From the NCBI GenBank assembly GCA_002305355.1, contig DBQS01000036.1, positions 15,612 through 79,611 on the forward strand: 64,000 nt of DNA, written 5' to 3'. Position numbers and translations under genes: made by a program. Under the pieces are notes generated by a model. The model had not been told where the DNA came from. It ran no database searches and saw nothing but the letters and a program-made list of their open reading frames with translations. Origin of the DNA: Patescibacteria group bacterium UBA1388. GTDB lineage: Bacteria; Patescibacteriota; Microgenomatia; UBA1400; PJMF01. The number at the start of each line of letters is the position of its first letter. The stretch's first letter is position 1. Positions 308 through 27,493 of the stretch are shown piece by piece.

Positions 308-505
308 AGAACCGATATTCTATCAAATACCTGAAATAATTGAAAGTTCCACATAATAACCGCCGCTTATTGGTGAAGTGTTGCGTCAACACTTTTAAGA
401 TCAAACATATAAAACTTAAAATAAAACCAAGCAAGACGCCTACGATGTTAAGCAATTACATCATGATAGAACGAGTATTGTTGGCAACACTCTCATGGAG
501 GAAAA

Positions 506-2677
506 CTAACTTTTGTTGTCTGGTTTTAACTCTTCAATTTCTGAAGGGTTGTTAATACCTCCCGTCACGCCATGATCACTAACAGAAGGTTTGAGCGGGG
601 GAGTTATCCCATGGCCGTGTGTTTGAGGAGGAGTTTGAGGAGGTTGCCAAGGAATGGTTGTTGAGCCGAATCTGTCTGGGTTCTCCCCTAGATCATCTAA
701 CCGATCATCGTGTGGGGAGAAAATACTAGCCAAAAATTTAAGTACAACCACAATCAGCATGATTACACCAATACCCACAATGATAAAAGGCAAGTAAGAC
801 ATAAAATCACGTTTTGGAAATTCTGGAGCAAAGCTAGTTGACTCAGCAGCATCGAAATCGATCTCTGGAGCAGACGTTTCAGGTGTTTGATCGCTACCGG
901 GGATTGCAGATCTGATGAAATCGGCAATATCTATAAAAAACCCTTGCACCGATCCTAAAATCATATCCAGCATGCTTTCCTCAATTTCTACTTCATCGTC
1001 TATTGATGGAGGGGTAGGCGTCATAGTTGGAATGGGGGTAGGAATTGGTTTAGATGAAGCGCTGGCAGATGGCGAAGGTGAAGCTGAAGGCTGCAAACTT
1101 GAACTGACCGTTGGTGTGGCAAGTGGAGCAGTTTGACGACTATTGGTTGTCGTTGTTGATGCAGTTAATCTACCGGCGGTGGCAGCAGTACATGTTGTGC
1201 TACTGGGATTAGTTGCAAGACGGCAGGCGCCGTTGTAGCAGCGCAAGTTGTTGGCGCAATCGGCGTTGGCAGCACAGCTAACATTACACCCTTCTCTGAT
1301 TTGGGTGGTTTGATTCTCACTTAAAGTAGGACAGGAGGGGTCCTCGACATTGTAAGGATCCCGACATCGATTGTACCAACAAGTCAAGTTGCCACTACAT
1401 TCATTGGTGTCAGCACAGTATTCATTGCACGTCCTATTTAATCCTTGATCTGGAGGATTGTGGCAGACCGAGCTATTGACGTTGGTTGCCAACCGGCAGC
1501 GCTTGCCATCAACACCTGTATCGTAGCAACGCTCATTAGTGGAGCAGTCGCTATTACTGTTACAACGTTCGTTGCAAGTGTCGCTGACTTCATCATTTTC
1601 ATCATCTTCGTCGTCTTCATCTTCATCTGCAAATCTGAGGGTAAAGCTATACTGGTTATCATTTTCGTTTGATTCATCAATAGCGTTTTGATGATCAAGA
1701 CTGACGGTGAATTTATTATCGCCATCTTTAACAACAAAAACTGTTTCTAAGTCTGTTTTGGTGGCGTTTTTGTCTCTGAGCAGCGTGCTATAGCTCAAGT
1801 TTGATTTACCAAGACCACTATCAGCAGCTTGCAACACAATTTCAATCGGAGTTGGGTCGGTGCTACGTTCGTCATAGATACTATTGTTAATTTCTGCCTG
1901 ATGTTTGACAATGTAAAAATTTCCTATCTTCAGATTATCGGCACTCACCAGTTCGTTGCTATCTTGGTTATAAAAGAGAAAACGATCAGCCAACGCACTG
2001 GTGTTGGCGTATAAGTTGTCCCTCTTATCAGCAGTGGTCGCTTTTCCTACTTGAACAGTAATCGGTGCCACATGAGTGAGCTCATCTTTTATCGGTTGAG
2101 AATCGTAAATGGGAGCTATTGAGCGCTCAGTGTCAAAATTGAAAGTAATTTCACCAGTCTTGGTGGGAGTGAATGTTACAACAGCAAAAGTGGTAGCAGC
2201 ACTTGTTGAAAAAGGTTTCTCAGGATTGGATGAAATTGCTTTTATTTCCGCAGTGAAACCATGTTGAACTCGATCAACCTCTGTAGATAAAACGAGTAAA
2301 CCATCTGCTTTTGCATCAATCTGTATTTGATCAGCCACTTCAGTCACCACATCAAATACTAGCTGCACACCGTTCACTCGTACTTGATTGGTATTGACCT
2401 TTAATTCAATTGCGACTTCTTTTCCTACCACAATCTCTTGTGGATAAGTTGCGCTCACCTTCACTTTCCCTTCAACCACTGAAGCTTCTTGGCGAATATC
2501 CTGCGATTCTTGGATTGATTTTTGCGAAACGACCATTGTCAACAACAACAAACCAGTCAATACCAGCACGCCAAGCATGGTGAGCATCGATGAAGTGCGC
2601 TGCAGCCAAGGAAGCTTGTTTTTTGATGGTGAGTTCAAGTGTTGAGACATAACTGCTTTATATTGCTTTAATAACAA
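506..2677 (-). CDS. Large cell-surface protein: signal/TM (real start probably M31/M34 at 2587/2578), beta-rich cohesin-like module, poly-acidic tract, three Cys-rich modules, Pro/Thr/Ser linker, C-terminal TM anchor
   Basis: Translation shows an N-terminal hydrophobic segment MLTMLGVLVLTGLLLLTMVVS, the tract DEDEDDEDDENDE, three ~30-aa CNxxC..DC..NLxCYxxxCR modules, a PT-rich linker (PIPTPIPTMTPTPP) and a TM segment FIIVGIGVIMLIVVVLKFLASIF. Confidence 0.75.
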   Translation of the reverse strand: MLLKQYKAVMSQHLNSPSKNKLPWLQRTSSMLTMLGVLVLTGLLLLTMVVSQKSIQESQDIRQEASVVEGKVKVSATYPQEIVVGKEVAIELKVNTNQVRVNGVQLVFDVVTEVADQIQIDAKADGLLVLSTEVDRVQHGFTAEIKAISSNPEKPFSTSAATTFAVVTFTPTKTGEITFNFDTERSIAPIYDSQPIKDELTHVAPITVQVGKATTADKRDNLYANTSALADRFLFYNQDSNELVSADNLKIGNFYIVKHQAEINNSIYDERSTDPTPIEIVLQAADSGLGKSNLSYSTLLRDKNATKTDLETVFVVKDGDNKFTVSLDHQNAIDESNENDNQYSFTLRFADEDEDDEDDENDEVSDTCNERCNSNSDCSTNERCYDTGVDGKRCRLATNVNSSVCHNPPDQGLNRTCNEYCADTNECSGNLTCWYNRCRDPYNVEDPSCPTLSENQTTQIREGCNVSCAANADCANNLRCYNGACRLATNPSSTTCTAATAGRLTASTTTTNSRQTAPLATPTVSSSLQPSASPSPSASASSKPIPTPIPTMTPTPPSIDDEVEIEESMLDMILGSVQGFFIDIADFIRSAIPGSDQTPETSAPEIDFDAAESTSFAPEFPKRDFMSYLPFIIVGIGVIMLIVVVLKFLASIFSPHDDRLDDLGENPDRFGSTTIPWQPPQTPPQTHGHGITPPLKPSVSDHGVTGGINNPSEIEELKPDNKS

Positions 2678-2679
2678 AA

Positions 2680-3687
2680 TTATTTAAATGCGTTCACAAA
2701 AAGATTAAAATCCATTATATCCACTTTTTCGTCCTGATTGATATCTCCCCGCAAGCGGTAATACGACCCAGTGGCTCCATAATTGACAACTAAAATGTGA
2801 TAGTCAAACAAATCTACTAAACCGTCTTGATTGAAATCAGCGGGTGGAAGATTTGTTGGTGGGCAAGGTCTAAAGATACAATTGTTTTGGGGATCCCTGC
2901 TGACACTCGATCCATCGGGGCAAATTTTAACATCTGCTGCACAGACTATGTCTGACTCGCTTTCTGAAGTAAACGCTTCCACTTTGATATTTTTGAAAAA
3001 AATCTTGCTTCGTTCATCTGCAGATGTTAAAATCATATCTCCTTGATGGGAATATGGCTGACCAAGATTGCCTTTAAAAAAAGGAACTTCGTCAGCAGCA
3101 AAAAAAATCCATTCAGGATTAAGATTGACCGAGTCGTAGGTGCGCAATTCGTTTGTCCACCAAGTGTTGCTATCCTTATAGAAGTAGGCATAGAATCTCA
3201 TTTCTTGATCATTTTCTGTCCACGCTACTTCCAAAGTAGTGTAGTTTTGATCACCACTGGTGGGAGGGTCAGAATGGATTAAAAATTTATCAGTGTTACC
3301 CACAAATACTTCACCCTCTGACTCAATCATGAAACTATCAGCTTGAAGATAGGTATGCTCTGTTTTCCAGACGATGGGATTGTCTGTTTGGTATTGCACC
3401 GAATCAGGTGGTAATGTTTCAATCGTGGCAAAAGAATTTGATTCTGCAGCTAACTGTGAATCAGACTGAAAAGCAAGTTGTGGGGTATCATTTACAGCTT
3501 GTGAATCAATGAAAAATTGATGCAATGCTGCTGTGACCAGCATTGGTAGAAAGGCGGCGAGTAAAGCCAAGGTAATAAGTTGTTTAGGAGGTAATTGCCT
3601 AATTTTTTCGACAGCAACAAGAAATTTTGATTTAGAATGATTTAGTTTGGGTGTTGTGTCCATCGCAAAATCTTTGCTGTGCTTCAA
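2680..3687 (-). CDS. Secreted/membrane-anchored protein with a C-terminal dockerin module
   Basis: N-terminal TM LITLALLAAFLPMLVTAAL. The C-terminus DFNQDGLVDLFDYHILVVNYG...GDINQDEKVDIMDFNLFVNAFK is a duplicated DxNxDGxVDxxD calcium-binding dockerin signature. It lies 2 nt upstream of the 506..2677 gene. Confidence 0.75.
   Translation of the reverse strand: MKHSKDFAMDTTPKLNHSKSKFLVAVEKIRQLPPKQLITLALLAAFLPMLVTAALHQFFIDSQAVNDTPQLAFQSDSQLAAESNSFATIETLPPDSVQYQTDNPIVWKTEHTYLQADSFMIESEGEVFVGNTDKFLIHSDPPTSGDQNYTTLEVAWTENDQEMRFYAYFYKDSNTWWTNELRTYDSVNLNPEWIFFAADEVPFFKGNLGQPYSHQGDMILTSADERSKIFFKNIKVEAFTSESESDIVCAADVKICPDGSSVSRDPQNNCIFRPCPPTNLPPADFNQDGLVDLFDYHILVVNYGATGSYYRLRGDINQDEKVDIMDFNLFVNAFK
2683..2847 (-). 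other. Dockerin type-I-like module (two Ca-binding repeats)
   Basis: DFNQDGLVDLFD and DINQDEKVDIMD, each followed by a hydrophobic helix. Confidence 0.7.
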
Positions 3688-3810
3688 TCGGTTTAAATTT
3701 TAGCTACAATGAATCTAACATTAAAAACGCACGAGTCATAGCTACGAACCTAGCATCTAGCTTAACTCTTGAATCGAGCGGCTGTCAACATGAAATGATA
3801 AAAAATTGTT

Positions 3811-5136
3811 TTGAATAATAAAATGATCAGGGTTTATAAGTTGACACAATTAGAGAAAATCATTGTAGCTTGGTTGGTTTTAGGTTGGTCGTGGTTGGCG
3901 ACAGTAGGTTGGGTAATTGGCCTAACTGGTTTTGATTTGATTCCAGAGTTAGTGCGCGTTACATCATTTTATATTTGGAGTGAGGGGTTGATGGTGCTGA
4001 CTTTGTTGGACTGGTTGGGGCGTGTTGGGAAAACCGTCAGCTTTCCACACTTGGACAGATCAGGCAAATTATTGGGCTTGGCATTGATGATGCACCTGGG
4101 GTGGATTGCCATCACTGCGGTGTTGGGTGAAAACCCGGCCCAGAGTTTTTGGGGAAATTATTATCGACAGGACGGTTTGTTGACGCTGGCTCATCTAGCA
4201 ATGTGGGTAGTGATGATTGGCTTGTGGTGGCGAGAAATTTGGGGCCAGTGGTTATGGTTGCTGATTGCTCTAAGTGGAATAGTTTTATCACTTGGTTTGG
4301 TGTTGATGCATGTTTGGCAATGGGCAATGGTGATGGGGGGTTGGCCAGAAAGGGTAATCCAAAGTTCATTGCTGATGACTGGCGGTTTTGGTCACCCGGC
4401 TTACTTGGCGGGCTTTTTGGTGTTAACTTTGCCTTTTATTTGGTTTTTGCCTAATTTGCTTGCTAGGTCTGGTGAGTTTGAAAAGGGTTATGAGGGGCGG
4501 CGGCGGGAGTGGCTCAGGGGGGTGGGGTTGGTCAGCGCCGCCGCCGCCATCATCTTGACTCAATCAACAGGTGCTACGCTGGCCTTGGTCATTTTTTTTG
4601 GAATGACATTATTTGCATCCTTTCGTCGTCGAGCCTTGAGAATAGAGATTATTGTTTTGATCGGCGTGGCAGTCTTCGTCACCTCAACCTGGATCTATGT
4701 TTCACAACTTAATTCTTATGAAGGTAGGCCAAGAATTTTCCATAACCTGTGGTCAGCCAGTCAGCAACGACCAATTATTGGTTGGGGCTGGGCAAATATT
4801 GACTCAGCTTTTAAAAATGTAGAGTGGCCATATCCAGTGCAATTTGATGTTTATTTGGATAAAGCCCATTCTCACATGTTGGAAATATTGGTAGCAACGG
4901 GTTGGCCAGGACTAATAATCTACTTGGCTTTTATAAGTATCTTGTTGCTCATAGCTTTCAGTAAATACAAGAAAATAACACTTAAAAAAAGATCAACAAA
5001 CCAATATTATTTGGCAATACTGATGTGTTTGGTACTGTATATCTTTCACTCCCAAACAAATGTCATCTCAATTATGGAAGAAATAATCTTCTGGTTTTGT
5101 GTGGGTCTGGTGATTGACTCAACAAAAGTTATTTGA
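3811..5136 (+). CDS. O-antigen ligase (Wzy_C)-like polytopic membrane protein
   Basis: About 10 TM helices. The KAHSHMLEILVATGWPGL motif matches the Wzy_C AHNxxLxxxxExGxxG signature. Confidence 0.65.
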   Translation: MNNKMIRVYKLTQLEKIIVAWLVLGWSWLATVGWVIGLTGFDLIPELVRVTSFYIWSEGLMVLTLLDWLGRVGKTVSFPHLDRSGKLLGLALMMHLGWIAITAVLGENPAQSFWGNYYRQDGLLTLAHLAMWVVMIGLWWREIWGQWLWLLIALSGIVLSLGLVLMHVWQWAMVMGGWPERVIQSSLLMTGGFGHPAYLAGFLVLTLPFIWFLPNLLARSGEFEKGYEGRRREWLRGVGLVSAAAAIILTQSTGATLALVIFFGMTLFASFRRRALRIEIIVLIGVAVFVTSTWIYVSQLNSYEGRPRIFHNLWSASQQRPIIGWGWANIDSAFKNVEWPYPVQFDVYLDKAHSHMLEILVATGWPGLIIYLAFISILLLIAFSKYKKITLKKRSTNQYYLAILMCLVLYIFHSQTNVISIMEEIIFWFCVGLVIDSTKVI

Positions 5137-5147
5137 ACTGTTCGTCA

Positions 5148-6983
5148 CTACGAGGCATTACGAAAGATAACTACCCAAGCATTAAAATCAAGGATATCAA
5201 TCCGACCATTGTTATCCATGTCTGAAGAGGTAAATCCCGGATTACCGGTTCTACCGTACTCGCTAACAAAAACATTAAAGTCCAGAAGATTGATGATGTT
5301 GTCTTGATTGAAGTCGCCTCTCAATGTGTTGCCGGTTGAGCAAGTTGCCGTTCGAATTGAACGGGTTGGGCTTGAGCTAAAGCCATTCCATAAATTAACA
5401 TAGTATTGAGTATTTTCAGATAAATTTAGGGCAGGTTGATTGGATTGGGGTAAAAAATTGGCTGGAGCAATTATTTGAAAATATTGACTTGAGTTGTTAG
5501 CGGTGACTAGATCAACTTTCTTAATGGTGCTGCTCCAAAATTTATCGAAAGTTGGGTTTTTGCTAATATTAGCGACAGACACAGCTTGTTGGTAATTTGC
5601 TGGCCACTGAATTCTAATAATCGGCTGTCGGCCATTTTGTGTGGTGATACAGCTTGAACTAAGAGTAGGGGCTGATGGGGTCAGAGGGGTTTGTAGAAAA
5701 TTGGCAAATTCCCGATTGATCTGATTAATACTGACTCGGTTAAAAGCATTTCCTCCGGGTTCAAAATAATGTCTCATAATTGAGTTTTCAGATGAGCGGT
5801 AAAGGTTGGGGTAATAACAACCAGCTAAGCAATCCGTTCCATCAATATTTTCCCATTTTGGACAGCTGGCTACATCGCAGTTGGCTCTTGATAGGACGAA
5901 TTGTGTGTTCGAAGAAGCATGATGATCTACTAAATATTCATCTGCCAACCTACCGAATGCATGACCAAGCTCATGAACAGCTATAGATAGATAGTCCACG
6001 TCAGTCGAGACTATAGCGATTCTGTCGTAAGCAGTGCCAGCTGGTTGATTGGAATCGTAAAGTACGATGACGTTATCAACCCAAACGTATTTAAGCAACT
6101 GTACTAAAGCAGTCCGATTACACTCGATAAGAGTTTGTCCAACATATGGAATATTACAGTTAATTGATTGGGTGAATATCTTCTTGATTTTAATATCATT
6201 TCTATGCTGATTGAATGGTTTGTAGGTTAACAAATGTTGCAAGATATGATTCACATGTTGATCAAATTTTGCTCTATCTGTGTAGTTGGAGCTAACGAAA
6301 ACGAAATCAATTTGCCCGTTATAAAATGAAATATTATTTGAGTAGTTATTTTGTGTAACACCCAATACTTGTTGATCGGGATCGTCTAGGGCAAAATCTG
6401 AAGAATTCAAATCTACTGACTCAATGATTAACTCATCTTCATTGATTATGGTTGTGGGTTCGGAGGGTGACGACAAGAGTTGAGCATTAATGAGCGGAAT
6501 GATTTCTCCTGTTTCAGTTTTCCTGATCTGCAGTTGAGCTTTCGGCCACACCTTAAAAGCAATCGTCAGACTATCCTTAAGTTGACCCCCAGACCTATCA
6601 CCATCATAGTAAATTGTAAAATTAAGAGGAATGGAGTCGACAATCTCTTCTCCAACTATCTGATCTAGAATAAGTTCTGGGTTAGGTTGAGTGATAAGTG
6701 GTAAATTCATTCCTTCAAATTTTTCTACGCTTTCCAAAATAATTTTGTCATCTTGATAGGTTAAGTTGGCTAGAACAAAAATTGGCTCCTGATTTGTCGT
6801 CGCTTGACTGCGAATATCTTGAGTGCCAGGTTCCTGATCTTGAGCATTAGGTTGTTGCTCTTGGATTAAACCCAACTGCGATACCATAGGTTTAGCAGTG
6901 TAAAATAAAACACCGATTAAACTCATAAAGAGGAGAATTGTTTTAATATTAGAATAGTGATGTTGTGTTTGATGAACCAACAT
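5148..6983 (-). CDS. Secreted zinc metalloprotease (HExxH...DEY, M64-like) with a C-terminal dockerin module
   Basis: N-terminal signal/TM ILLFMSLIGVLFYTA; VHELGHAFGRLADEY at nt 5934..5975; C-terminus DFNQDNIINLLDFNVFVSEYG...DMDNNGRIDILDFNAWVVIF. Confidence 0.75.
   Translation of the reverse strand: MLVHQTQHHYSNIKTILLFMSLIGVLFYTAKPMVSQLGLIQEQQPNAQDQEPGTQDIRSQATTNQEPIFVLANLTYQDDKIILESVEKFEGMNLPLITQPNPELILDQIVGEEIVDSIPLNFTIYYDGDRSGGQLKDSLTIAFKVWPKAQLQIRKTETGEIIPLINAQLLSSPSEPTTIINEDELIIESVDLNSSDFALDDPDQQVLGVTQNNYSNNISFYNGQIDFVFVSSNYTDRAKFDQHVNHILQHLLTYKPFNQHRNDIKIKKIFTQSINCNIPYVGQTLIECNRTALVQLLKYVWVDNVIVLYDSNQPAGTAYDRIAIVSTDVDYLSIAVHELGHAFGRLADEYLVDHHASSNTQFVLSRANCDVASCPKWENIDGTDCLAGCYYPNLYRSSENSIMRHYFEPGGNAFNRVSINQINREFANFLQTPLTPSAPTLSSSCITTQNGRQPIIRIQWPANYQQAVSVANISKNPTFDKFWSSTIKKVDLVTANNSSQYFQIIAPANFLPQSNQPALNLSENTQYYVNLWNGFSSSPTRSIRTATCSTGNTLRGDFNQDNIINLLDFNVFVSEYGRTGNPGFTSSDMDNNGRIDILDFNAWVVIFRNAS
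5151..5321 (-). other. Dockerin type-I-like module (two Ca-binding repeats)
   Basis: DFNQDNIINLLD and DMDNNGRIDILD repeats. Confidence 0.7.
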
Positions 6984-7105
6984 ATAGTAATTTGATTTAC
7001 CACAGCTGAGTTAAGTCAGTATAGATCAATTTTTGAATGCGGTATACTATTTCGGTACGTAGGATATAAAACTAAATACTATTCGTAATACACGATGGGA
7101 GGCAA

Positions 7106-7996
7106 ATGACAGAGAGTATTGTTCGTAAAGCTATCATTACCGACGCTGGGTTTGCCAGTAGGTACTTACCCATTACTAAGACTATTCCCAAAGCGATGTT
7201 GCCGCTTGGCAACAAACCAGTCATGCAGTTCATGGTGGAGGAGTGTACACAGGCTGGAATCCAGGAAATTATTATTGTGGCCACCCCAGAGGGTAAACCA
7301 ATTTATGAGGATTATTTCCATAATAGTGTAATTCGGATCAAGAAGCAGCTTGAGTCGCAAGGTAAATTGGATCGTTACGAGCCTGTACAGCGAGTATTAG
7401 ACTTCCCTAAAATTACCATCATCACTCAAGACCCAAGCTTGCCATATGGTAATGGTTCACCAGTCGCATCTGCTCAAAAATTTGTCGAGGGAGAAGAAGC
7501 ATTTTTGGTAATGTACAGTGATGATGTGGTTTATGGCGAACATGGTGATGCCAAGGCATTGGTTGACTTATTTGCTGCTCGAAAAGATGCCGATGCGATT
7601 ATTATGGCTCAAGAGGTGAGCTCGGAAGTTGTTGACAAGTATGGCATTATTTCTTTTAAAGATGGCACCGATAATCAACTTGATAACATTATTGAAAAAC
7701 CAGAAGTTGGTCAAGCTCCTTCCACGCTGGCTTCTTATGGCCGTTACCTGTTGAAACCCTCAATATTTGATCATCTGGTGCCGAAGTATACGGGCAAAGA
7801 CGGTGAGTTGTGGACAGTTGATGCGATCACTAAAATTGCTGAGTCAGGAACAGTGTTGGTAGAAAAAACTAAAGGCCAATGGCTTACAACCGGCGATCCG
7901 GAAAATTATTTTAGAGCTTATTTGGAATTTGTGATCAAGTTTGAAAAATATGGTCACAAAATACCGGCGTGGTTAGAAGAAATTGGTGGAGTTTGA
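7106..7996 (+). CDS. galU: UTP-glucose-1-phosphate uridylyltransferase
   Basis: ITDAGFASRYLPITKTIPKAMLPLGNKPVMQFMVEE is the nucleotidyltransferase G-loop typical of GalU. GGGAGG RBS 4 nt upstream. Confidence 0.75.
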   Translation: MTESIVRKAIITDAGFASRYLPITKTIPKAMLPLGNKPVMQFMVEECTQAGIQEIIIVATPEGKPIYEDYFHNSVIRIKKQLESQGKLDRYEPVQRVLDFPKITIITQDPSLPYGNGSPVASAQKFVEGEEAFLVMYSDDVVYGEHGDAKALVDLFAARKDADAIIMAQEVSSEVVDKYGIISFKDGTDNQLDNIIEKPEVGQAPSTLASYGRYLLKPSIFDHLVPKYTGKDGELWTVDAITKIAESGTVLVEKTKGQWLTTGDPENYFRAYLEFVIKFEKYGHKIPAWLEEIGGV

Positions 7997-8325
7997 CACT
8001 CCAGCAAGAACATAATCGTTCGCTTCAATTCTGAATTTAGGTCTAATTAAAGACTTATCGCCAATGATATAATGAGTTCAGCAGGGATCGTTAACAATCG
8101 GGTGTGGGAGATGCAGATGTTTTCCTGAACACCTCGTATACGGGCGATAGACTGTCTGAGTGCGTCGTGGCGCACGCAGCTTCTTACCCACTTTGTATTT
8201 GCGGGGAATTGCGTCTCTCACATTCGGCGGTTAGACAATCTGAAGAGTTCTTCAGAGTGGGGTTTGGTATGTAGTTTGGCGTGATTGTTACCACGTTTGA
8301 CATTGTGATGTTAGGAACATATTAA

Positions 8326-8401
8326 GCCTTCGTAGCTCAGGTGGCAGAGCGCTTTCTTGGTAAGAAAGAGGTCTCGGGTCCGACTCCCGACGAAGGCTCC
8401 A
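8326..8401 (+). tRNA. tRNA-Thr (anticodon GGT)
   Basis: Cloverleaf: acceptor GCCTTCG/CGAAGGC, D-stem GCTC/GAGC, anticodon loop TTGGTAA, T-loop, encoded CCA. Confidence 0.85.
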
Positions 8402-8852
8402 AAGAAGATGGTGGAGTTGATTGGAGTTTAGTTGCCGGCAAAATATTTCTTCACAAACTTGGAGGGTTGTGGATTTTACTTCCGACCAAATCTTCAGCTT
8501 CCATAATTTTTGTTTTTCTAACGGACAAAACTCATTTGAAAAGTGGAACGTTTTGCACATATTATTGAAAACATATTAGTTTTTAGACAACTCAGTATTA
8601 TTTAGACAAGTCAGTTTTTGGTCGATCTAATGTAGCAGATCTCCAAAATTATTCACTGGAAACAAACTTGTCACGCATGGCAAATAAAAGTGGTTAACAA
8701 AAACAATTAACCCGCGCAGTGGCAAAACTTGGATCATTGATCAATAAATTTATACTCAGCCATTATTTTCACAGACCATCCCCCCATGCGAAGAGGATAT
8801 CTAATGTAGTACAATATGACTTCGGCTGATATTTTATTACCAGTCCAAAGGT

Positions 8853-8935
8853 GCCAGGTTACCCAAGCGGTCAACGGGGGCAGACTGTAAATCTGCTGGC
8901 TTACGCCTTCAGAGGTTCGAATCCTTTACCTGGCA
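8853..8935 (+). tRNA. tRNA-Tyr (anticodon GTA), long variable arm
   Basis: Acceptor GCCAGGT/ACCTGGC, anticodon loop CTGTAAA, long variable arm, T-loop TTCGAAT; CCA not encoded. Confidence 0.85.
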
Positions 8936-8956
8936 CTTTTTTAGTGGACAAAAAAT

Positions 8957-9331
8957 ATGCATTTGAATTTTGAAGAATCACCATATTTATTTAACAGGTA
9001 TTCTTCTCAAACTCGCCCTAATACGGAGCTGACTGGCTCGACATTTCGGGAAGATTGGGAAACTGATTATCCCATGGCGGGTTGTGTCTTAAATCACACT
9101 GATCCTCTTACAATCATTTCAGCTGCTCAAAAAAACGGGATTGCTTTTAACTTTGAACAATTTTTACACGCGATGCAATGGGACCCAATGACTCCTTTTG
9201 TCGTTGATTTTAATGGTGGAAGAGTGAAATATTCCAATTTTCTAGAGGTGGTTGGGGTACTCAATCGGTTGCATGCATTAACACATCCCTTCCCGAAATT
9301 AAATCAAAAACAAAGCAGAATTAGCCAATAA
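8957..9331 (+). CDS. Hypothetical protein (124 aa) lying between tRNA genes
   Basis: Open frame only; no recognisable motifs. Confidence 0.35.
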   Translation: MHLNFEESPYLFNRYSSQTRPNTELTGSTFREDWETDYPMAGCVLNHTDPLTIISAAQKNGIAFNFEQFLHAMQWDPMTPFVVDFNGGRVKYSNFLEVVGVLNRLHALTHPFPKLNQKQSRISQ

Positions 9332-9343
9332 CTAGCCTTTAAA

Positions 9344-9352
9344 TGATACAAT
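9344..9352 (+). promoter_or_regulatory. Extended -10 element TGaTACAAT, 12 nt upstream of the tRNA-Thr(TGT) 5' end
   Basis: TGn+TACAAT motif; the same motif recurs upstream of tRNA-Trp, rpmB, purB and cysS. Confidence 0.35.
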
Positions 9353-9363
9353 ACATGGGTAGA

Positions 9364-9437
9364 GCCACCTTAGCTCAGTTGGTCAGAGCGACGGTTTTGT
9401 AAACCGTAGGTCTAGGGTTCGAGTCCCTAAGGTGGCT
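9364..9437 (+). tRNA. tRNA-Thr (anticodon TGT)
   Basis: Acceptor GCCACCT/AGGTGGC, D-stem GCTC/GAGC, anticodon stem ACGGT/ACCGT with loop TTTGTAA, T-loop TTCGAGT. Confidence 0.85.
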
Positions 9438-9795
9438 CAGATTGGTGAAATAGCATATGTTGGAACTAAATTTATGATTGAAATGAAGTGCTATGGTTCA
9501 AGACCAGAAGTATCACTCAGCTCTGATGAAAATTTGCACACTTTTCATAATGCATAAGAAGTAGTAATTTCCTTATTGAAAGGTTAAGTTTGAGGTATGG
9601 TAATAATGAACAAGATGGAACTCATGGTGTTCATAGGAGAAAAAGAGGACGACCACGCAAAGTGAGAGCAGAAATAAGAAAAGCGGAAGCAGAATTAGAA
9701 AATTAACGTCAAGTATGCTAGCTGGCTATAATCTGAGATTTGAGTTATACTACGCCTCTTGAAATAAAATTTTTAAGTGTTTTTGAAAGAAAAAT

Positions 9796-9999
9796 ATGGC
9801 AAAAGCAAAAAAAGGACCACGCCAAATTGTAGGGTTAAAATGCAAAGCATGTGGCAATTTTGGTTACTTAACGGAGTTTAACAAAAATAACGAACAGTTG
9901 AAAAAACAAACCACTGGTGAAACAACTTTCCCCCTGAAGAAGTATTGTGCTGTTTGTCGCAAGCACACCGTGCACGTTCAGGCGAAGAAGTTAAAATAA
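9796..9999 (+). CDS. rpmG: 50S ribosomal protein L33
   Basis: 67 aa, KCKACGN...CAVCRKHTVH C4 zinc ribbon, lysine-rich, L33-like. Confidence 0.8.
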   Translation: MAKAKKGPRQIVGLKCKACGNFGYLTEFNKNNEQLKKQTTGETTFPLKKYCAVCRKHTVHVQAKKLK

Positions 10000-10101
10000 C
10001 TTCCAAATTTTCCGCCTAACCCTAAAACTGTTTACAATTACTGGCCGGTTTATCTATAGGGGGGGTTATTGCTTGTCGAAAACTTTCCCGATCAAGTTCA
10101 T

Positions 10102-11445
10102 CTATTTGGTTTTTCTATTGACGCTGAGTTTGCTGATCTGTTTGTAAGCAGCCACGATATTTTTGGCGCCATTAAGATATAACCGATCAATTCGAAGGAC
10201 ATTGTGCATTGCTTTTTCAATCCAAGATTGGGCTTTTCCTTGGGCAGATTGTAGGACAGCAAGTTGAGTCAGAATTTGCTCGACATTGGCGCGGCGGCTG
10301 ATGTCTTGCTGCTCAAATATTTCCCTAATCCGGTGCTCCCATTCACCCCACTCGCGTAAGGTGAGCACAAAGCAGCCCGCTGCCACAGCATCATAAGTCA
10401 TATCACCTGAGGGCTTGGTAATAAAACCATGCGCCCATGGAAAGGCGTATTTGATTAATAGTTCATTGGCATCCACAATCTGGGGGTGGTAGAGCAGCCG
10501 TAACTTTGCGGAACGATCATTGTCTGCTCCCACAGCTACGCGGTGTTGTTTAGCCATTTCTCTAACCATGGTAGCAATATCGTGGTGAGTGCCAGCATAG
10601 ACAATTAATTTTAAAGCAGGTTTTTGTCTCCTTAATTCTGGCAGAAACTGAAGGAGCAATTGCTCAATCTCGGTTTTATTGGTGCCGAGCCCGCCAGTAG
10701 TTAACGCAAGTTTTAATACACCAGATCGCCATGGTGTTTTTTTCTCTCTACAAGCCACAATTCGGGGATCGACTGGTGAACCAGTCACAAAAATTCGAGA
10801 TGCATCCAATTTTTTGTCTTGAAGCGCAGCCTTTTCCAAAAGTTCCAATTTTGTGTTTTCATCAAAAACGCAGTAATAAAGGTTTGGTTGATCGGCGTAT
10901 GTGACGTAATCGTATCGCACATGAGGATCGGTAATAACCTGTAACACGGTCTTACCTTGACCCACCAAAATGTTTCCGGTGGCAACGTGCAAAGATAAAA
11001 TTGGCCGATTCACACTTTCTGTTAAGTAGAGTAAGGGTTCGGTGATACTGTTTAAGATAGGTAATTTTTGTCTCCCAAATCGGTCAATAAGATCTTTGAC
11101 GTTTTTTAAAATTGGATAACGGGCGATAGTTTTTCCTACTTTGTCCGTCAACTGGACAGAAAACCAATCATCAGCGGAGACATAATTAGTCGGGTCTGCC
11201 AGCCACGCTTTTTTAGGATCTTGTTTACCTCCCCAAACCTGACATGCGACACCAACCGCCATTGAATAATGGGCCCGAGAAAAAACTATATCCTGGGTAG
11301 TGTCAATGTCTGGTAAACCATGCATTTTTTTCAGATCTTCTTGATAAGTGCCAGAAACCGTCACAATTGGTAGCTGGGTTGACTGAAGATACTTTTTGTC
11401 TTTTCTTAGGGTTTTTTCAAGGACGGGGTCAAATAATTCTGGCAT
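10102..11445 (-). CDS. Glycosyltransferase, GT28/MGDG-synthase (UgtP/MurG-like) family
   Basis: LALTTGGLGTN resembles the N-terminal G-rich loop; ITKPSGDMTYDAVAAGCFVL resembles the C-terminal xTKPGGxTxxEAxA motif of MGDG synthases. Confidence 0.45.
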   Translation of the reverse strand: MPELFDPVLEKTLRKDKKYLQSTQLPIVTVSGTYQEDLKKMHGLPDIDTTQDIVFSRAHYSMAVGVACQVWGGKQDPKKAWLADPTNYVSADDWFSVQLTDKVGKTIARYPILKNVKDLIDRFGRQKLPILNSITEPLLYLTESVNRPILSLHVATGNILVGQGKTVLQVITDPHVRYDYVTYADQPNLYYCVFDENTKLELLEKAALQDKKLDASRIFVTGSPVDPRIVACREKKTPWRSGVLKLALTTGGLGTNKTEIEQLLLQFLPELRRQKPALKLIVYAGTHHDIATMVREMAKQHRVAVGADNDRSAKLRLLYHPQIVDANELLIKYAFPWAHGFITKPSGDMTYDAVAAGCFVLTLREWGEWEHRIREIFEQQDISRRANVEQILTQLAVLQSAQGKAQSWIEKAMHNVLRIDRLYLNGAKNIVAAYKQISKLSVNRKTK

Positions 11446-11593
11446 GAAATCTAGTTTATAAGTTTTCTGTCTGGTCGTCTAGAGGAAGACTGGGCAAAAC
11501 AAAGTGCCAATAAATGGATGAAAAACTTCTCCAGATCAAAATAAATTTAAATGAGGATTGGCTAACTTAACGTGTGATCGATTGAACAGATTA

Positions 11594-12223
11594 CTAAATA
11601 CCGATTTGTTGAATCGTCACTTGTTCACTCACAAAGATGCCGTAGTTACAAGGGCATTGACCGCCGGTATTAATGTTCTCACCTGAGGATGGGGTAGGGT
11701 TGGCAAATGCCATCACCTCAATCATCTGCACTTGATTATTCATAAGCCGCAAATAACCGGCTACTGAACCAAAAGGACTTTGTATATCCTGAGTGTTGAT
11801 CCGGTAACCATTGATTTCAAGTGATTTAGAAAAGCCCTGATTGGTGAGGTATTGGTCGGCAGCGGTCATGAACTGTTCTGGTGAGAGTGCAGGTTGACTA
11901 CTGGTCGATGCATTAACATCTTGATTAAGATCAACTGTAGTTTCCGCGACCCACAACTGCCCATTTGGAAAAAAAGATCTGTGGTCATTTGTAGAAGTTG
12001 ATTCAACTGTCAATAACGGTTGGTAACTTTGAAAAAAGATCGGTCGATTATCATTCGTTGTTTTGGTAAAACTCAATTCAGGGTAGAGGTTTGATATTTG
12101 TTCGGCTGAAACTAAGGTCAAAGTAGGTGGAAACAGTTGAGTTCGAAATTTGAACATTAAAAGCCCGGTTGCCAATATTGCCGTTAATAAAATTACAAAT
12201 AAATATAGTCTCTTTTTGCTCAT
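11594..12223 (-). CDS. Hypothetical secreted protein (N-terminal signal/TM)
   Basis: N-terminus MSKKRLYLFVILLTAILATGLLMF; nothing else recognisable. Confidence 0.45.
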   Translation of the reverse strand: MSKKRLYLFVILLTAILATGLLMFKFRTQLFPPTLTLVSAEQISNLYPELSFTKTTNDNRPIFFQSYQPLLTVESTSTNDHRSFFPNGQLWVAETTVDLNQDVNASTSSQPALSPEQFMTAADQYLTNQGFSKSLEINGYRINTQDIQSPFGSVAGYLRLMNNQVQMIEVMAFANPTPSSGENINTGGQCPCNYGIFVSEQVTIQQIGI

Positions 12224-12302
12224 GGGGAGTAGCTTATCATGAAATAATGAATGGAACTATTTTGTATAAGTAGGATGAAACTAAAATATTACCTGGTCTT
12301 TA

Positions 12303-12311
12303 TGTTACAAT
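12303..12311 (+). promoter_or_regulatory. Extended -10 element TGTTACAAT upstream of tRNA-Trp
   Basis: Motif lies 36 nt upstream of the tRNA 5' end. Confidence 0.35.
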
Positions 12312-12347
12312 TCTTGGCGAAGGTGCGCGAGTTGTTGTGCCTGAGTT

Positions 12348-12418
12348 AGGGGCGTCGGTTAACGGTAAACCACAGGTCTCCAAAACCTGAACTGAAGGTT
12401 CGATTCCTTCCGCCCCTG
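12348..12418 (+). tRNA. tRNA-Trp (anticodon CCA)
   Basis: Acceptor AGGGGCG/CGCCCCT, D-stem GGTT/AACC, anticodon stem CAGGT/ACCTG with loop CTCCAAA, T-stem GAAGG/CCTTC with TTCGATT; CCA not encoded. Confidence 0.8.
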
Positions 12419-12431
12419 CTTTAATAAATTT

Positions 12432-25261: not shown

Positions 25262-27493
25262 TTATGATGATAGTTGAAGTTGAGCAGAAATGGAGGCCAA
25301 AAGATCTAAAGCGAGCTGATTATCTGGAGAAATGTTTGCTAAGATGTATTTCAATTGCTCAGCAGCTTCTTCAAGTTGATTGTTTTCGTAGTATGCGACC
25401 GCTAATTGATAATGTGCTACTTCATAGTCTGGTTTAAGGTTTACAGCTTGTTGTAAATGATCCAGTCCCTGGTCTATTTGCTGCAAACTAATTTCGATTA
25501 GTCCCAAATTATACAATATTTTTGGATCAGTGGAGGATAACTTTTGAGCAATTTCCATTGCTTCAGCGGCTTTAACCAAATATTTGGGGTCTAGTTGGGA
25601 AAGGGTAATAAATGTTCTGGCGCGAGTTTTATAAAAATTAAGTTGATGGGGGTTGAGTTTCATAACTGCCTCACTGCTTTGTTCAGCAGCAGTTGCAAAT
25701 TGTTGCGCCTCTTCCGGTTTTTCACTCTGGGCGAGGTTAATCGCGGCCGTCGCGAAAACGGTGGCCAACTGATCATAGTAGGTTGCTTCATATTTATTAA
25801 GCTCAATAGCACGGTAGAGACTAGTGATGGCGGCTTCGGGCTGGCCGGCAGCGGCAGCAGATTTTCCTTGAGAGTAAGCCAGATCAGCCTGCCAGTAGCG
25901 TAGGGTGGCGCTGAGACTCAGTAAGCCGGCCAGCCCTGCCGCGCTCATTAATAATATTTGTGTCAGATTAAGTCCTCGGTGTGATGTTTTATCTTCAGGC
26001 CATTCATAAATAGGTTGGTTGATTAAAACCATCACTGCCATGAAAAGGTACATTAAAATGGTGACCATTACCGTAGAAAATCCAAAAAAATTTGAGAGAC
26101 TGAGGGCTGCCACGCCAGCGAGCACTCCCGCTGACAATAGCTGCATATGCTGATCGGAGGTTGGCACATGAGGTTGAAAAATTTTAATCAGACTAAAAAT
26201 CCCGAACCAACCGAGTAATAACAAGTAGCTCGCTAACCCAACTGCGCCACTAGTTGCTAAATAATTTAGAAATTCATTGTGCGCTTTATTGTATAAAAAA
26301 TCCCATTCTGAGACAAAATTGTGATCAACTGGTCGGTCGAGATAATAACTATAAGCGAAAGTTTCCAGACCCGAACCGAAAATTGGATAACGCTGCCAGA
26401 TTTTTATCGCTCCGCTCCACACAATTTTTCTAATCTCGCCGGAATCTGTCCCTCCGGTTTCCAACCGGTTGACAACCGGCATAGACTCGGTATCCGTCGC
26501 GACCTGATTAGTCTGACTGGTATTCCACTTGAGGGTTGGGGTATAAGGAGCATCAATCAGTACCGTCATCAATAAGCAAATACTGATTACCACTGAAAGG
26601 AGCTGCCACCGCTGTTTTATCAGAGAAATAAGCATCTTTTGGCGTTTTAAAATCCATAGCAATAACACAAAGAGAATGGTTAATCCCAACCCTAACCCTA
26701 AAATACCAGACCTAGATTTAGTAAATAATAGGGTGGCAAACATCAAAATAAGTGATCCAGCATAGAGCCATCGCAACCGTTGTTTTCGATTGATTAACGT
26801 GAACACCGCTCCAACCGGAATCAGCGTGATGAGATAAGCCGCGAGCCAATTTGGTTGACCGAAGCTGGCAAAAACGCGGTTTTGCACATCCTGAACCCAG
26901 CAATTGACTCCAAAAGAAGTGCCTTTAGTGGCGAGCCAGCAGCTAATGGAATGACCAAAGTGTTCAAGACTAGCATAAACAGAAGTCAAAACTGCAGCGA
27001 GAAAGGTGGTTAAAAACAAACTTGGAAGATGTTTTTTTTGAATATTGGTTACAAAAGCATAATAAAGTGCCACATAAGTGATAATAGATAGTAATCCACC
27101 GTGAAAACGCGAGTAGTACCCAAATAGAGAAGTATAAGGATGGAGTGAAAAAATAGTAGCCAGCAATTGAGACAGCAAAAAAACCACGATGGGAATATCC
27201 AGTGGCGTACGACGAAAGACAAACTGTTTAGCGGCAATCATTTTTACCACCCAGGCTAATATGATGATAATTGCTAAGGCATAAGTGAGCACCATCTTGT
27301 TAAACTCAAAGAGCTCACTGGTGTTAAACCAGAAAAATAAAGGTACCATCAAAAGAAGCGCATGAAAGCTTGTTACCAAAGTAGCTTGGGACCACTGCAA
27401 CAAACCGGACTCTTGATGATTGTGAAGAGCAGCGGCAGATTTAGTTTGAGTTGGTTGTTGACGCGCTAGTTTGCGGCGATGTTTTTTTGACAC
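25262..27493 (-). CDS. O-antigen ligase (Wzy_C) family polytopic membrane protein with C-terminal TPR repeats
   Basis: Multiple TM helices; NKAHNEFLNYLATSGAVGL Wzy_C motif; C-terminal 200 aa with TPR-like repeats (AYSQGKS..., YNLGLIEISLQQIDQGLDHLQQAVNLKPDYEVAHYQLAVAYY). Confidence 0.7.
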   Translation of the reverse strand: MSKKHRRKLARQQPTQTKSAAALHNHQESGLLQWSQATLVTSFHALLLMVPLFFWFNTSELFEFNKMVLTYALAIIIILAWVVKMIAAKQFVFRRTPLDIPIVVFLLSQLLATIFSLHPYTSLFGYYSRFHGGLLSIITYVALYYAFVTNIQKKHLPSLFLTTFLAAVLTSVYASLEHFGHSISCWLATKGTSFGVNCWVQDVQNRVFASFGQPNWLAAYLITLIPVGAVFTLINRKQRLRWLYAGSLILMFATLLFTKSRSGILGLGLGLTILFVLLLWILKRQKMLISLIKQRWQLLSVVISICLLMTVLIDAPYTPTLKWNTSQTNQVATDTESMPVVNRLETGGTDSGEIRKIVWSGAIKIWQRYPIFGSGLETFAYSYYLDRPVDHNFVSEWDFLYNKAHNEFLNYLATSGAVGLASYLLLLGWFGIFSLIKIFQPHVPTSDQHMQLLSAGVLAGVAALSLSNFFGFSTVMVTILMYLFMAVMVLINQPIYEWPEDKTSHRGLNLTQILLMSAAGLAGLLSLSATLRYWQADLAYSQGKSAAAAGQPEAAITSLYRAIELNKYEATYYDQLATVFATAAINLAQSEKPEEAQQFATAAEQSSEAVMKLNPHQLNFYKTRARTFITLSQLDPKYLVKAAEAMEIAQKLSSTDPKILYNLGLIEISLQQIDQGLDHLQQAVNLKPDYEVAHYQLAVAYYENNQLEEAAEQLKYILANISPDNQLALDLLASISAQLQLSS

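Follow-up and report, generated by a model that had tools for sequence, protein, structure and literature searches.

The product of the gene at nt 5148..6983 on the minus strand of the window, by which we mean the whole 64,000-nucleotide stretch of DNA from Patescibacteria group bacterium UBA1388 that was analyzed, is an M64 (igalysin)-family protein of the metzincin clan that carries a dockerin at its C terminus. In our preferred reading, to which we give a probability of roughly 0.7 as a whole, this protein is an exported zinc endopeptidase that is docked via its dockerin onto a receptor encoded in the same gene cassette. Taken alone, the annotation of the protease as a dockerin-bearing M64 metallopeptidase of divergent sequence is right but fairly ordinary. 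It is the gene context that is new: a conserved cassette that looks like a small, so far undescribed system by which exchangeable enzymes are attached to the surface of the cell. Candidate-phyla bacteria rely on other cells or external nutrients, and their surface equipment is little understood. The source is probably a Pacebacteria-like member of this group, uncultured and with a small genome, as suggested by gene content and by the 67-aa protein L33, whose 90%-identity cluster includes a Candidatus Pacebacteria MAG.

According to the proposed mechanism, a hydrophobic N-terminal helix would carry the protease across the membrane. The protein would be built from a β-sandwich and a catalytic domain in the same arrangement as in BF3526 of Bacteroides fragilis, after which come an FN3-like domain and a type-I-like dockerin. 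The most likely ligand of this dockerin, in a calcium-dependent interaction, is the membrane-anchored cassette receptor encoded at 506..2677, and the docked protease would be displayed on the cell surface beside other exchangeable dockerin-tagged proteins. Its likely role is to serve an auxotrophic organism by degrading, outside the cell, proteins or peptides that come from the environment or from a host.

The open reading frame starts with ATG and encodes 611 amino acids (aa), and the same gene is called on a 140-kb contig of a public assembly. No clear Shine-Dalgarno sequence was found 5' of the ATG, and a scan for sigma-70 promoters and terminators across 400..8200 gave no excess over shuffled controls. 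A hydrophobic helix near the N terminus (aa 12–30, NIKTILLFMSLIGVLFYTA; nt 6894..6950), either a signal peptide or a signal anchor, is evident from the sequence, from a hydropathy scan, and as a helix in the structural model, in agreement with the N-terminal signal or transmembrane (TM) segment noted in the initial annotation. It is followed by a QDIRSQAT motif (aa 55–62; nt 6798..6821), found by regular expression and common to the cassette proteins, which is a possible sorting or processing signal. Next come a β-sandwich N-terminal domain (aa 66–190; nt 6414..6788; modeled strands with pLDDT mostly 60–89), the M64 catalytic domain (aa 222–432; nt 5688..6320), an FN3/Ig-like β domain (aa 438–546; nt 5346..5672) with C445 and C548 at its borders, and the dockerin module (aa 553–610; nt 5154..5327), all on the minus strand.

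The dockerin and its gene cassette

A dockerin segment is defined here as a helix preceded by a 12-residue EF-hand-like calcium loop (D/N at positions 1, 3, 5, and 9; D at 12). Two such loop-helix segments stand in tandem, 31 residues apart, at the extreme C terminus of the protease, as in a type I dockerin: DFNQDNIINLLD-FNVFVSEYG, with its loop at aa 557–568 (nt 5280-5315), and DMDNNGRIDILD-FNAWVVIF, with its loop at aa 588–599 (nt 5187-5222), both read from the translated minus strand. The helices appear in the model at residues 566–576 and 597–609, at a low pLDDT of 55–76. The protease matches the Pfam profile Dockerin_1 (PF00404) at 19.6 bits (E = 0.001), below the cut-off of 22.9, and it matches the PDB dockerin 2y3n_B at E = 0.0017 and a local dockerin HMM at 63.5 bits; among 31 cassette proteins with a homologous module at the C terminus, 21 match Dockerin_1, with a best E of 3.1e-11. 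With two canonical calcium loops, a dockerin match in the PDB, and homologous modules recognized by Dockerin_1, the C-terminal dockerin of the initial annotation stands. Its remark that a protease delivered in this way is not a standard arrangement was overstated, given the dockerin peptidases of Ruminococcus flavefaciens FD-1 (PMC2930009) and a C-terminal dockerin pair in at least 12 of the 268 M64 relatives fetched.

In the window, two genes separate the protease gene from that of the candidate docking partner (506..2677, minus strand), a 723-aa membrane-anchored protein singled out by its homologs and by gene linkage. It contains an N-terminal TM segment (aa 28–50), a conserved N-domain (aa 56–214; nt 2036-2512), a CARDB-like region, three 6-Cys repeats (aa 368–500), a Pro/Thr linker, a second TM segment (aa 623–650), and a Pro-rich tail. 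Directly upstream lies the gene for a second dockerin protein (2680..3687, minus strand; 335 aa; Dockerin_1 20.8 bits, local HMM 71.5 bits), whose cargo domain is without assigned function and has homologs in loci L085, L098, and L100. A Wzy_C (O-antigen-ligase-like) membrane protein (3811..5136, plus strand; Pfam Wzy_C, 2.4e-16) is encoded convergently with the protease and is a recurrent cassette member, since L085 and L105 have homologs at the corresponding position. On the other side, the gene of a GalU-like UTP-glucose-1-phosphate uridylyltransferase (7106..7996, plus strand; TIGR01099, 1.8e-58) is divergent from the protease gene and forms a conserved cassette boundary, and galU-like homologs of 72–80% identity flank the cassette in many loci.

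A word-index search found no homologs of the N-domain of the 723-aa protein, nor did a metagenome scan for which this protein alone was the query; an alignment-based metagenome scan identified 35 related loci. In locus L082, a gene of the 723-aa family (34% identical) lies directly downstream of an orthologous M64-dockerin gene. Across 458 kb of loci plus the window, comprising 990 ORFs, the dockerin HMM gave 39 matches, all inside the cassette. Dockerin genes are directly upstream of the N-domain gene, or fused to it, in 23 of 24 sources; the gaps are mostly <70 nt (171 nt in L093), and in L087 the product of the dockerin gene itself carries the N-domain. Four proteins contain an N-domain plus a dockerin, like adaptor scaffoldins. 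The TM anchor is always at the end of the N-domain proteins, and the N-domain together with this C-terminal TM segment is the invariant core of the family. The dockerin-bearing cargo is varied and includes M64 enzymes, a papain-like cysteine protease, beta-helix enzymes, and tiny proteins of 72–85 aa. Because of this tight and repeated linkage of dockerin genes to its gene family, the N-domain of the 723-aa protein is likely to be the dockerin receptor, and a single membrane-anchored family thus offers a concrete candidate partner. The surface delivery through a dockerin that had been proposed initially is supported by the gene context to this extent, as a candidate partnership, while the targeting of host or partner-cell surface proteins that was suggested along with it is a hypothesis.

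The cassette linkage suggests that a cellulosome-like logic of display has been reused for proteases. We put forward, tentatively and at somewhat less than even odds, that the protease is one cargo of a minimal system for surface display in candidate-phyla bacteria that has yet to be described, consisting of a galU-adjacent cassette with one to four dockerin-cargo genes, a downstream receptor gene, adaptors, and a shared QDIRxQAS signal. If this is true, dockerins here pair either with a novel type of receptor or with a cohesin that has diverged too far to be recognized, and these organisms with reduced genomes would have a modular way of arming their surface in order to feed on other cells or to attach to them.

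Homology of the N-domain to cohesins (PF00963) is rejected at the sequence level. No cohesin match was found in Pfam or NCBIfam among 23 N-domain members at E <= 10, a profile of these 23 sequences had no match in the PDB, and hhalign gave a probability of 0.24% against CipA cohesin 2 and of 0.32% against six PDB-verified type-I cohesins. The one weak lead, NCBIfam choice-of-anchor V, is matched by 5 of the 23 members at a best E of 0.0016, far below the cut-off, and a match to the S-layer proteins 8bt9/7qfl, seen at E 0.07 with a two-sequence N-domain profile, vanished with the 23-sequence profile. Nor was any cohesin signature present in the 33 window proteins scanned with Pfam. One may therefore argue that the dockerin-like module is a calcium-binding adhesion module for glycans or host surfaces, or that it binds a cohesin encoded elsewhere, the adjacency to the N-domain gene reflecting co-regulation only. 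Such an argument can also draw on a statement in PMC9012536, citing Peer et al. 2009, that non-cellulosomal dockerins without known partners are widespread, on the essential dockerin protein of the Saccharibacterium Southlakia, for which host-glycan targeting was proposed (PMC10633639), and on the eight N-domain loci without an adjacent dockerin gene. However, it would leave the linkage in 23 of 24 sources at such short distances, with no other dockerin in ~0.5 Mb, to co-regulation, and it fits poorly with the adaptor-like proteins that unite both modules and with the invariant membrane-anchored core of the partner family. We therefore regard this alternative as unlikely, while giving it some weight, and favor docking onto the cassette receptor.

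A further alternative concerns the role of the enzyme, which might be dedicated to the maturation of the other cassette proteins, cutting them for instance at QDIRxQAS, rather than serving nutrition or acting on a host. A QD[IL]RxQA[ST]-type motif occurs in 29 of the 990 ORFs, all of which encode cassette proteins, the protease included, and each time it lies just after the N-terminal TM helix; moreover, BF3526 acts near free N termini (PMC12402451). Nevertheless, M64 cargo is found in only 2 of 31 dockerin proteins, the motif is present in many loci without an M64 gene, and the orthologs P0008 and P0009 do not have a clean motif, which makes this role improbable. The breakdown of external protein by the docked protease remains the reading we prefer.

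The M64 domain and its catalytic motif

The assignment to M64 follows from family profiles, from sequence matches to solved structures, and from the fold of a good model. The M64 profile PF09471 matches the protease at 32.3 bits (Pfam cut-off 26; E = 7.4e-8), in a match that spans profile positions 111–163 only, and it matches 40 of the 41 closest relatives. With a profile built from the closest relatives, canonical PF09471+PF16217 proteins are in turn recovered, with E values from 1e-39 to 1e-30, and the protease sequence itself matches 3p1v and 4df9 in the PDB. Unlike these canonical M64 proteins, the protease has no match to PF16217, the Pfam model of the M64 N-terminal domain, in a Pfam scan. 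An AlphaFold model from an 81-sequence alignment reached a pLDDT of 77.6 and a pTM of 0.73, with 86–97 in the catalytic domain; an earlier model from a 7-sequence alignment was discarded (pLDDT 44). According to Foldseek, the fold of the catalytic domain is nearest to the solved M64 enzymes, with BF3526 at E = 3e-17 and the Thomasclavelia ramosa IgAse at 5e-11 to 7e-10. The alignment with BF3526 extends over ~435 columns, i.e. both domains, and the β-sandwich domain of the protease (aa 66–190) is positioned like the N-terminal domain of BF3526.

While a word-index search yielded only 7 relatives, the exhaustive HMMER search that was required, over 1.84 billion proteins, returned 1043 cluster representatives at E <= 1e-3, of which 275 remain when the limit is set to E <= 1e-10. 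Together with the PF09471 score, this shows that the observation is not due to chance. A scan of a genome collection that does not include the window's own species recovered mostly canonical Bacteroidales M64, with a dockerin in 1 of 80 loci. The protease is part of a variant M64 subfamily that is large and mostly metagenomic. The text of a 2025 similarity-network survey describes 15 clusters and assigns none of them to a candidate-phyla taxon (PMC12402451).

The M64-type zinc metalloprotease with an HExxH...DEY motif that the initial annotation had recognized is borne out by the profiles, by the solved-structure matches, and by the model, in which the HExxH segment belongs to a protease fold of the metzincin/M64 type and not to a non-protease one. 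The zinc-binding motif HELGHAFGRLADEY (aa 337–350) falls on translation exactly where it had been placed, at nt 5934..5975 of the minus strand, preceded by a Val at nt 5976-5978. Its pattern is that of M64, but the spacing had been written one residue too short, as HExxHxxGxxDEY: the order is H337-E-L-G-H341-A-F-G-R-L-A-D348-E349-Y350, or HExxHxxGxxxDEY, with the Asp at +11 from the first His. This third-ligand spacing is one residue longer than that of the metzincin HExxHxxGxxH/D and is specific to M64, as exemplified by H311/H315/D322 of BF3526 (PMC12402451). In addition, the alignment with 3p1v and 4df9 pairs each residue of HELGHAFGRLADEY with one of VHEFGHSFGGLADEY.

Based on alignment to H311/E312/H315/D322/E323 of BF3526 (PMC12402451; also PMC12237041), zinc would be coordinated by H337, H341, and D348, the last of which aligns with the third ligand expected within DEY, while E338 would act as the general base and E349 would be the family-specific Glu. 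Among 81 sequences, H337, E338, H341, D348, E349, Y350, and M403 are each conserved in at least 90%, and M403, within the Met-turn SIMR (aa 401–404; nt 5772..5783, minus strand), occupies the same column as in the canonical C-x-M Met-turn. Thus, the protease is presumably catalytically competent. The opposite view, that it is a catalytically dead adhesin with a protease-like fold, has nothing specific in its favor beyond the loss of the structural zinc site described below, and it is rejected as very improbable because every catalytic residue and the Met of the Met-turn are preserved, in the protease as throughout its subfamily. Hardly credible at all is a true IgA protease directed against animal mucosal antibodies, a literal reading that draws on the Pfam family name and on fold similarity to the T. 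ramosa IgAse only and that is rejected here, since BF3526, the structurally closest enzyme, leaves intact IgA uncut (PMC12402451) and the “IgA” label is therefore not transferable.

Cysteines and the lost structural zinc site

In all solved M64 enzymes, a structural zinc is bound by the Glu after the Asp ligand, by the Met-turn Cys, and by a CxxC in the C-terminal helix; the Met-turn of the canonical IgAse reads CIMR (PMC12237041). The protease is without this Cys3+Glu site: E349 is retained, S401 stands in place of the Met-turn Cys, and no Cys occurs within the 30 residues after M403. Neither Pfam nor MEROPS includes the structural zinc site in its definition of M64, and a state without it is common to 43 relatives. 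Among 79 relatives, C369, C374, C385, and C389 are all present in 35, exactly C374 and C385 are lost together in 8, the canonical Met-turn Cys plus CxxC are found in 25, and both patterns coexist in 2. These conserved, co-varying cysteines probably replace the structural zinc in stabilizing the protein, as disulfides, and the most likely pairs, proposed from co-variation only, are C369-C389, C374-C385, C276-C288, and C445-C548. Such an exchange of the zinc site for disulfide-like cysteines bears on how the recently characterized M64 family is to be defined.

Comparison with known systems

BF3526 of B. fragilis and BACOVA_00663 of B. ovatus (PDB 4DF9/9QDI/3P1V) are 13–16% identical to the protease in structural alignments. 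BF3526 binds its structural zinc through E323, C398, C409, and C412 (PMC12402451), and those cysteines are absent from the protease; BF3526 is furthermore a lipoprotein without an FN3-like domain or a dockerin, whereas the protease has both. The founding member of M64/igalysin, the T. ramosa IgAse or ThomasA (PDB 9QA6/9QDH/9I4Z), is a Fab-recognizing enzyme of 1234 aa and seven domains, whose Met-turn reads CIMR and which has a Cys3+Glu zinc site. In contrast, the protease has SIMR, no CxxC, and no Fab-binding apparatus, and it carries a dockerin.

The 222 dockerin proteins of R. flavefaciens FD-1 include 16 peptidase modules, and one of these is a metalloprotease (PMC2930009). Like these dockerin peptidases, the protease is a hydrolase with a putative signal peptide and, at the C terminus, a dockerin with duplicated calcium loops, and its dockerin aligns to the type-I dockerin 2Y3N chain B. 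Unlike in cellulosome producers, however, there is no recognizable cohesin or scaffoldin here and no cellulolytic enzyme, the genome is tiny, and the candidate receptor is TM-anchored, with a domain of unassigned family.

Further parallels are provided by the non-cellulosomal cohesin-dockerin systems of Archaeoglobus and ANME archaea and by SEML1_0315 of Southlakia, in which dockerins, as here, stand outside plant-cell-wall degradation and probably serve surface attachment (PMC9012536, PMC10633639). In Southlakia, the one genetically tractable candidate-phyla member, the dockerin protein is essential (PMC10633639) and is without a proposed partner, and the cohesins of ANME are recognizable with Pfam, whereas in the cassette described here a conserved adjacent gene provides the candidate partner.

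Family assignment and architecture

The ATG-initiated ORF at 5148..6983 (minus strand) encodes a 611-aa protein, and an identical product is among the gene calls of a 140-kb public contig (Logan SRR5321221). The initial annotation had read it as an M64 metalloprotease with a dockerin, which is correct overall. Pfam assigns Peptidase_M64 at 32.3 bits (cut-off 26, E 7.4e-8), with Matrixin and Reprolysin scoring lower and below threshold, and phmmer against PDB sequences retrieves the Bacteroides M64 structures 3p1v and 4df9/9qdi in an alignment that runs through VHEFGHSFGGLADEY, as well as the cellulosomal dockerin 2y3n_B. A word-indexed search found only seven relatives, and an exhaustive HMMER search of 1.84 billion representatives raised this to 1043 at E ≤ 1e-3, of which 275 reach E ≤ 1e-10. 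Full-length orthologues number just two among them, P0008 (38% identity) and P0009 (36%), whose alignments cover aa ~55-604, dockerin included. PF09471 is matched by 40 of the 41 closest sequences, and a profile of these 41 retrieves canonical PF09471+PF16217 proteins at 1e-39 to 1e-30, including an Anaeromyxobacter "IgA peptidase M64". The protein is M64 by every defining test, yet it belongs to a variant subfamily in which the structural zinc is replaced.

Structure prediction agrees with this assignment. A 7-sequence alignment gave a model too poor to use (pLDDT 44), and an 81-sequence alignment gave pLDDT 77.6 and pTM 0.73, with 86-97 in the catalytic domain. The best Foldseek match in the PDB is the Bacteroides fragilis M64 peptidase BF3526 (9qdi, 4df9; E about 3e-17 over about 435 aligned columns), followed by 3p1v and the Thomasclavelia ramosa IgA protease (IgAse; 5e-11 to 7e-10); archaemetzincin and ADAM-8 rank below the M64 enzymes at 1e-4. 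The model and the Foldseek ranking give the order N-terminal helix, low-confidence linker, beta-sandwich (aa ~66-190), catalytic domain (aa ~222-432), FN3-like domain and dockerin. Translation places the expected N-terminal signal or transmembrane segment in a hydrophobic stretch at aa 12-30. It also locates the expected dockerin at the extreme C-terminus, as two perfect EF-hand-like loops, DFNQDNIINLLD (aa 557-568, nt 5280-5315) and DMDNNGRIDILD (aa 588-599, nt 5187-5222), each followed by a helix, although Dockerin_1 reaches only 19.6 bits against a Pfam cut-off of 22.9.

Other members of the subfamily appear in other display formats (L002 4939-6675 and L003 124-6624). P0003, from a MAG labelled Gammaproteobacteria, joins the M64 domain to a prepilin-type N-terminal methylation/cleavage segment. 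An Aenigmatarchaeota MAG encodes a 2166-aa protein with the M64 domain at its C-terminus, and a Nanoarchaeota MAG (L005) has such a domain as well.

Active site and cysteines

According to the two 2025 papers that define the family, the catalytic zinc of M64 enzymes is bound by two His and one Asp (H311, H315 and D322 in BF3526; H539, H543 and D550 in IgAse), the Glu next to the first His is the base, and the Tyr of the DEY triad is a possible tyrosine switch (PMC12402451, PMC12237041). The zinc motif here, HELGHAFGRLADEY, lies at aa 337-350 (nt 5934-5975), and the protein has H337, E338, H341, D348, E349, Y350 and M403, each of them at least 90% conserved among 81 sequences. The position and the HExxH...DEY arrangement first proposed stand, but the formula HExxHxxGxxDEY does not, since the Asp follows the first His by 11 residues and not 10, which is precisely the M64 peculiarity.

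The Met-turn is SIMR, and translation and alignment show no Cys in the 30 residues after M403. The catalytic domain instead contains C276, C288, C369, C374, C385 and C389. The last four are all kept in 35 of 79 aligned relatives, and in eight C374 and C385 are jointly lost while C369 and C389 are retained; 25 carry the canonical Met-turn Cys and CxxC and none of these four, two have both patterns and nine neither. The loss of C374 and C385 as a pair points to two disulfides, C374-C385 nested within C369-C389, which would be favoured over a four-Cys metal site. The FN3-like domain is flanked by C445 and C548, both retained in the orthologues.

Linkage of dockerin and N-domain genes

The gene context is the most interesting result of this analysis. 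Taking the strand of the gene for a 723-aa protein as forward, the window cassette reads galU (7106..7996, reverse), the M64-dockerin gene (6983..5148, forward), Wzy_C (3811..5136, reverse), a 335-aa dockerin protein (3687..2680, forward) and the 723-aa protein (2677..506, forward). This last protein (506..2677, minus strand) consists of an N-terminal helix, a conserved N-terminal domain (N-domain), a CARDB-like region, three 6-Cys repeats, a Pro/Thr linker, a C-terminal transmembrane helix and a Pro-rich tail. In locus L082, the P0008 gene lies between a divergent galU and the gene of a 771-aa protein that is 34% identical to the 723-aa protein. Here galU is 80% identical to its window counterpart, and the M64-dockerin protein 38% (HMMER) or 34% (BLASTP); the protease and the 723-aa candidate receptor have diverged faster than galU, as would be expected if they are fast-evolving surface proteins.

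When the aligned 771-aa and 723-aa proteins were used to scan metagenomes, 35 loci were recovered, and the family is found in the window, L082 and L084-L118. Two HMMs, for the dockerin modules and for the N-domain (23-sequence alignment A6), were run on 990 ORFs, taking those of ≥70 aa from the loci (458 kb) and those of ≥80 aa from the window. All 39 dockerin matches are C-termini of cassette proteins, and none falls in the flanks. Dockerin genes occur in 24 distinct sources, and in 23 of these the dockerin gene directly adjoins an N-domain gene on the same strand, mostly with gaps below 70 nt (L093: 171 nt); L087 has both modules on one protein. Eight N-domain loci have no nearby dockerin gene. 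All 41 N-domain proteins have an N-terminal helix, the N-domain and, optionally, 6-Cys repeats and a Pro/Thr linker, and full-length ones close with a C-terminal transmembrane helix, absent in a few that lie at contig ends or are of adaptor type. Pfam recognises Dockerin_1 in 21 of the 31 dockerin proteins (best E 3e-11); their cargo includes M64 protease (two), papain-family protease (one, 1e-43) and beta-helix (three), and most of it falls into no known family.

Is the N-domain a cohesin? The 723-aa protein has no match in Pfam, NCBIfam or PDB sequences, and Pfam cohesin is absent from 33 scanned window proteins. Scanned against Pfam and NCBIfam at E ≤ 10, 23 members gave no cohesin, the sole recurrent weak match being NCBIfam "choice-of-anchor V" (5 of 23, best E 0.0016, far under cut-off). 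The 23-sequence profile retrieved nothing from PDB sequences, and hhalign gave 0.3% probability against a cohesin profile built from two sequences matching PDB entries 1ANU and 1G1K at 100% and four from printed alignments. Because cohesin similarity was not found, the idea that this family is a candidate docking partner draws only on gene linkage and architecture.

The 335-aa protein gene (2680..3687, minus strand) ends 2 nt from the candidate receptor gene; its cargo domain is weakly similar only to the T2SS substrate NttE/Lpg0189 and has homologues in L085, L098 and L100. Wzy_C genes occupy the equivalent cassette position in L085 and L105. The window encodes two such O-antigen-ligase-like membrane proteins, at 3811..5136 (plus) and 25262..27493 (minus), the second fused with TPR repeats. 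With Wzy_C and galU as neighbours, it is conceivable that the Pro/Thr-rich surface proteins are glycosylated.

Some cassette proteins end in half (single-segment) dockerins (L093 3686-3916 and 9488-9745; L095 3910-4164 and 9294-9542; L096 3272-3490 and 8674-8928; upstream ORFs of L110, L112-L114, L117 and L118), and some of these are only 72-85 aa, with a transmembrane helix, often a QDIR motif, and a single Ca loop and helix. The motif QD[IL]RxQA[ST] occurs in 29 of 990 ORFs (window 6798..6821 and 2480..2503, both minus strand, plus 27 ORFs in L082-L111), 8-30 residues past the N-terminal transmembrane helix and restricted to N-domain proteins and dockerin cargo. It matches no known family and looks like a signal, particular to this lineage, for sorting or cleavage. 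Together with the QDIRxQAS motif, the conserved dockerin-cargo/receptor cassette is worth pursuing.

Elsewhere, the window (GC about 41%) carries housekeeping genes for GalU, L33, four tRNAs, MreB, MreC, PBP2, a Mur ligase, DprA, ThyX, SurE, Fmt, an L,D-transpeptidase and an amidase. At 90% identity, L33 clusters with a Candidatus Pacebacteria MAG protein (NCBI: Minisyncoccota, candidate phyla radiation), and an origin in this group is probable; the GTDB representatives scanned do not include the window's species. The tRNA cluster at 8326..12419 (tRNA-Thr(GGT), tRNA-Tyr, tRNA-Thr(TGT), tRNA-Trp) is interspersed with the L33 gene and small ORFs without family matches. In a 534-aa ORF (39040..40644, minus strand) only aa 46-220 match ThyX (Thy1); the ORF far exceeds typical ThyX in length and so may be a fusion or duplication.

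Probable substrate and known systems

In the assays described in PMC12402451, BF3526 left intact IgA, IgG and albumin uncut; its activity is on peptides, which it trims close to free N-termini, frequently beside proline, and its N-terminal domain limits active-site access. Since the window protein shares the BF3526-type N-terminal domain and catalytic core, the most economical guess is a peptidase with restricted active-site access, whose substrates would be peptides or flexible chain ends, and IgA specificity should not be transferred to it. It may, as the initial annotation suggested, target host or partner-cell surface proteins.

Four proteins with an N-domain and a C-terminal dockerin (L087 4336-6180, L093 6382-7671, L095 6510-7700, L096 5851-7083) resemble adaptor scaffoldins. 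A C-terminal dockerin-loop pair is present in at least 12 of 268 fetched M64 relatives, and, among 80 reference-genome loci that are mostly Bacteroidales, in a single M64 from a Planctomycetota MAG. Dockerins outside cellulosomes are widespread (PMC9012536), and the initial view that a dockerin-borne protease is "not a standard arrangement" was overstated: R. flavefaciens FD-1 has 222 dockerin proteins including 16 peptidase modules, one a metalloprotease (PMC2930009). The gene is thus a new variant inside a known family, and the module attached to it is already known.
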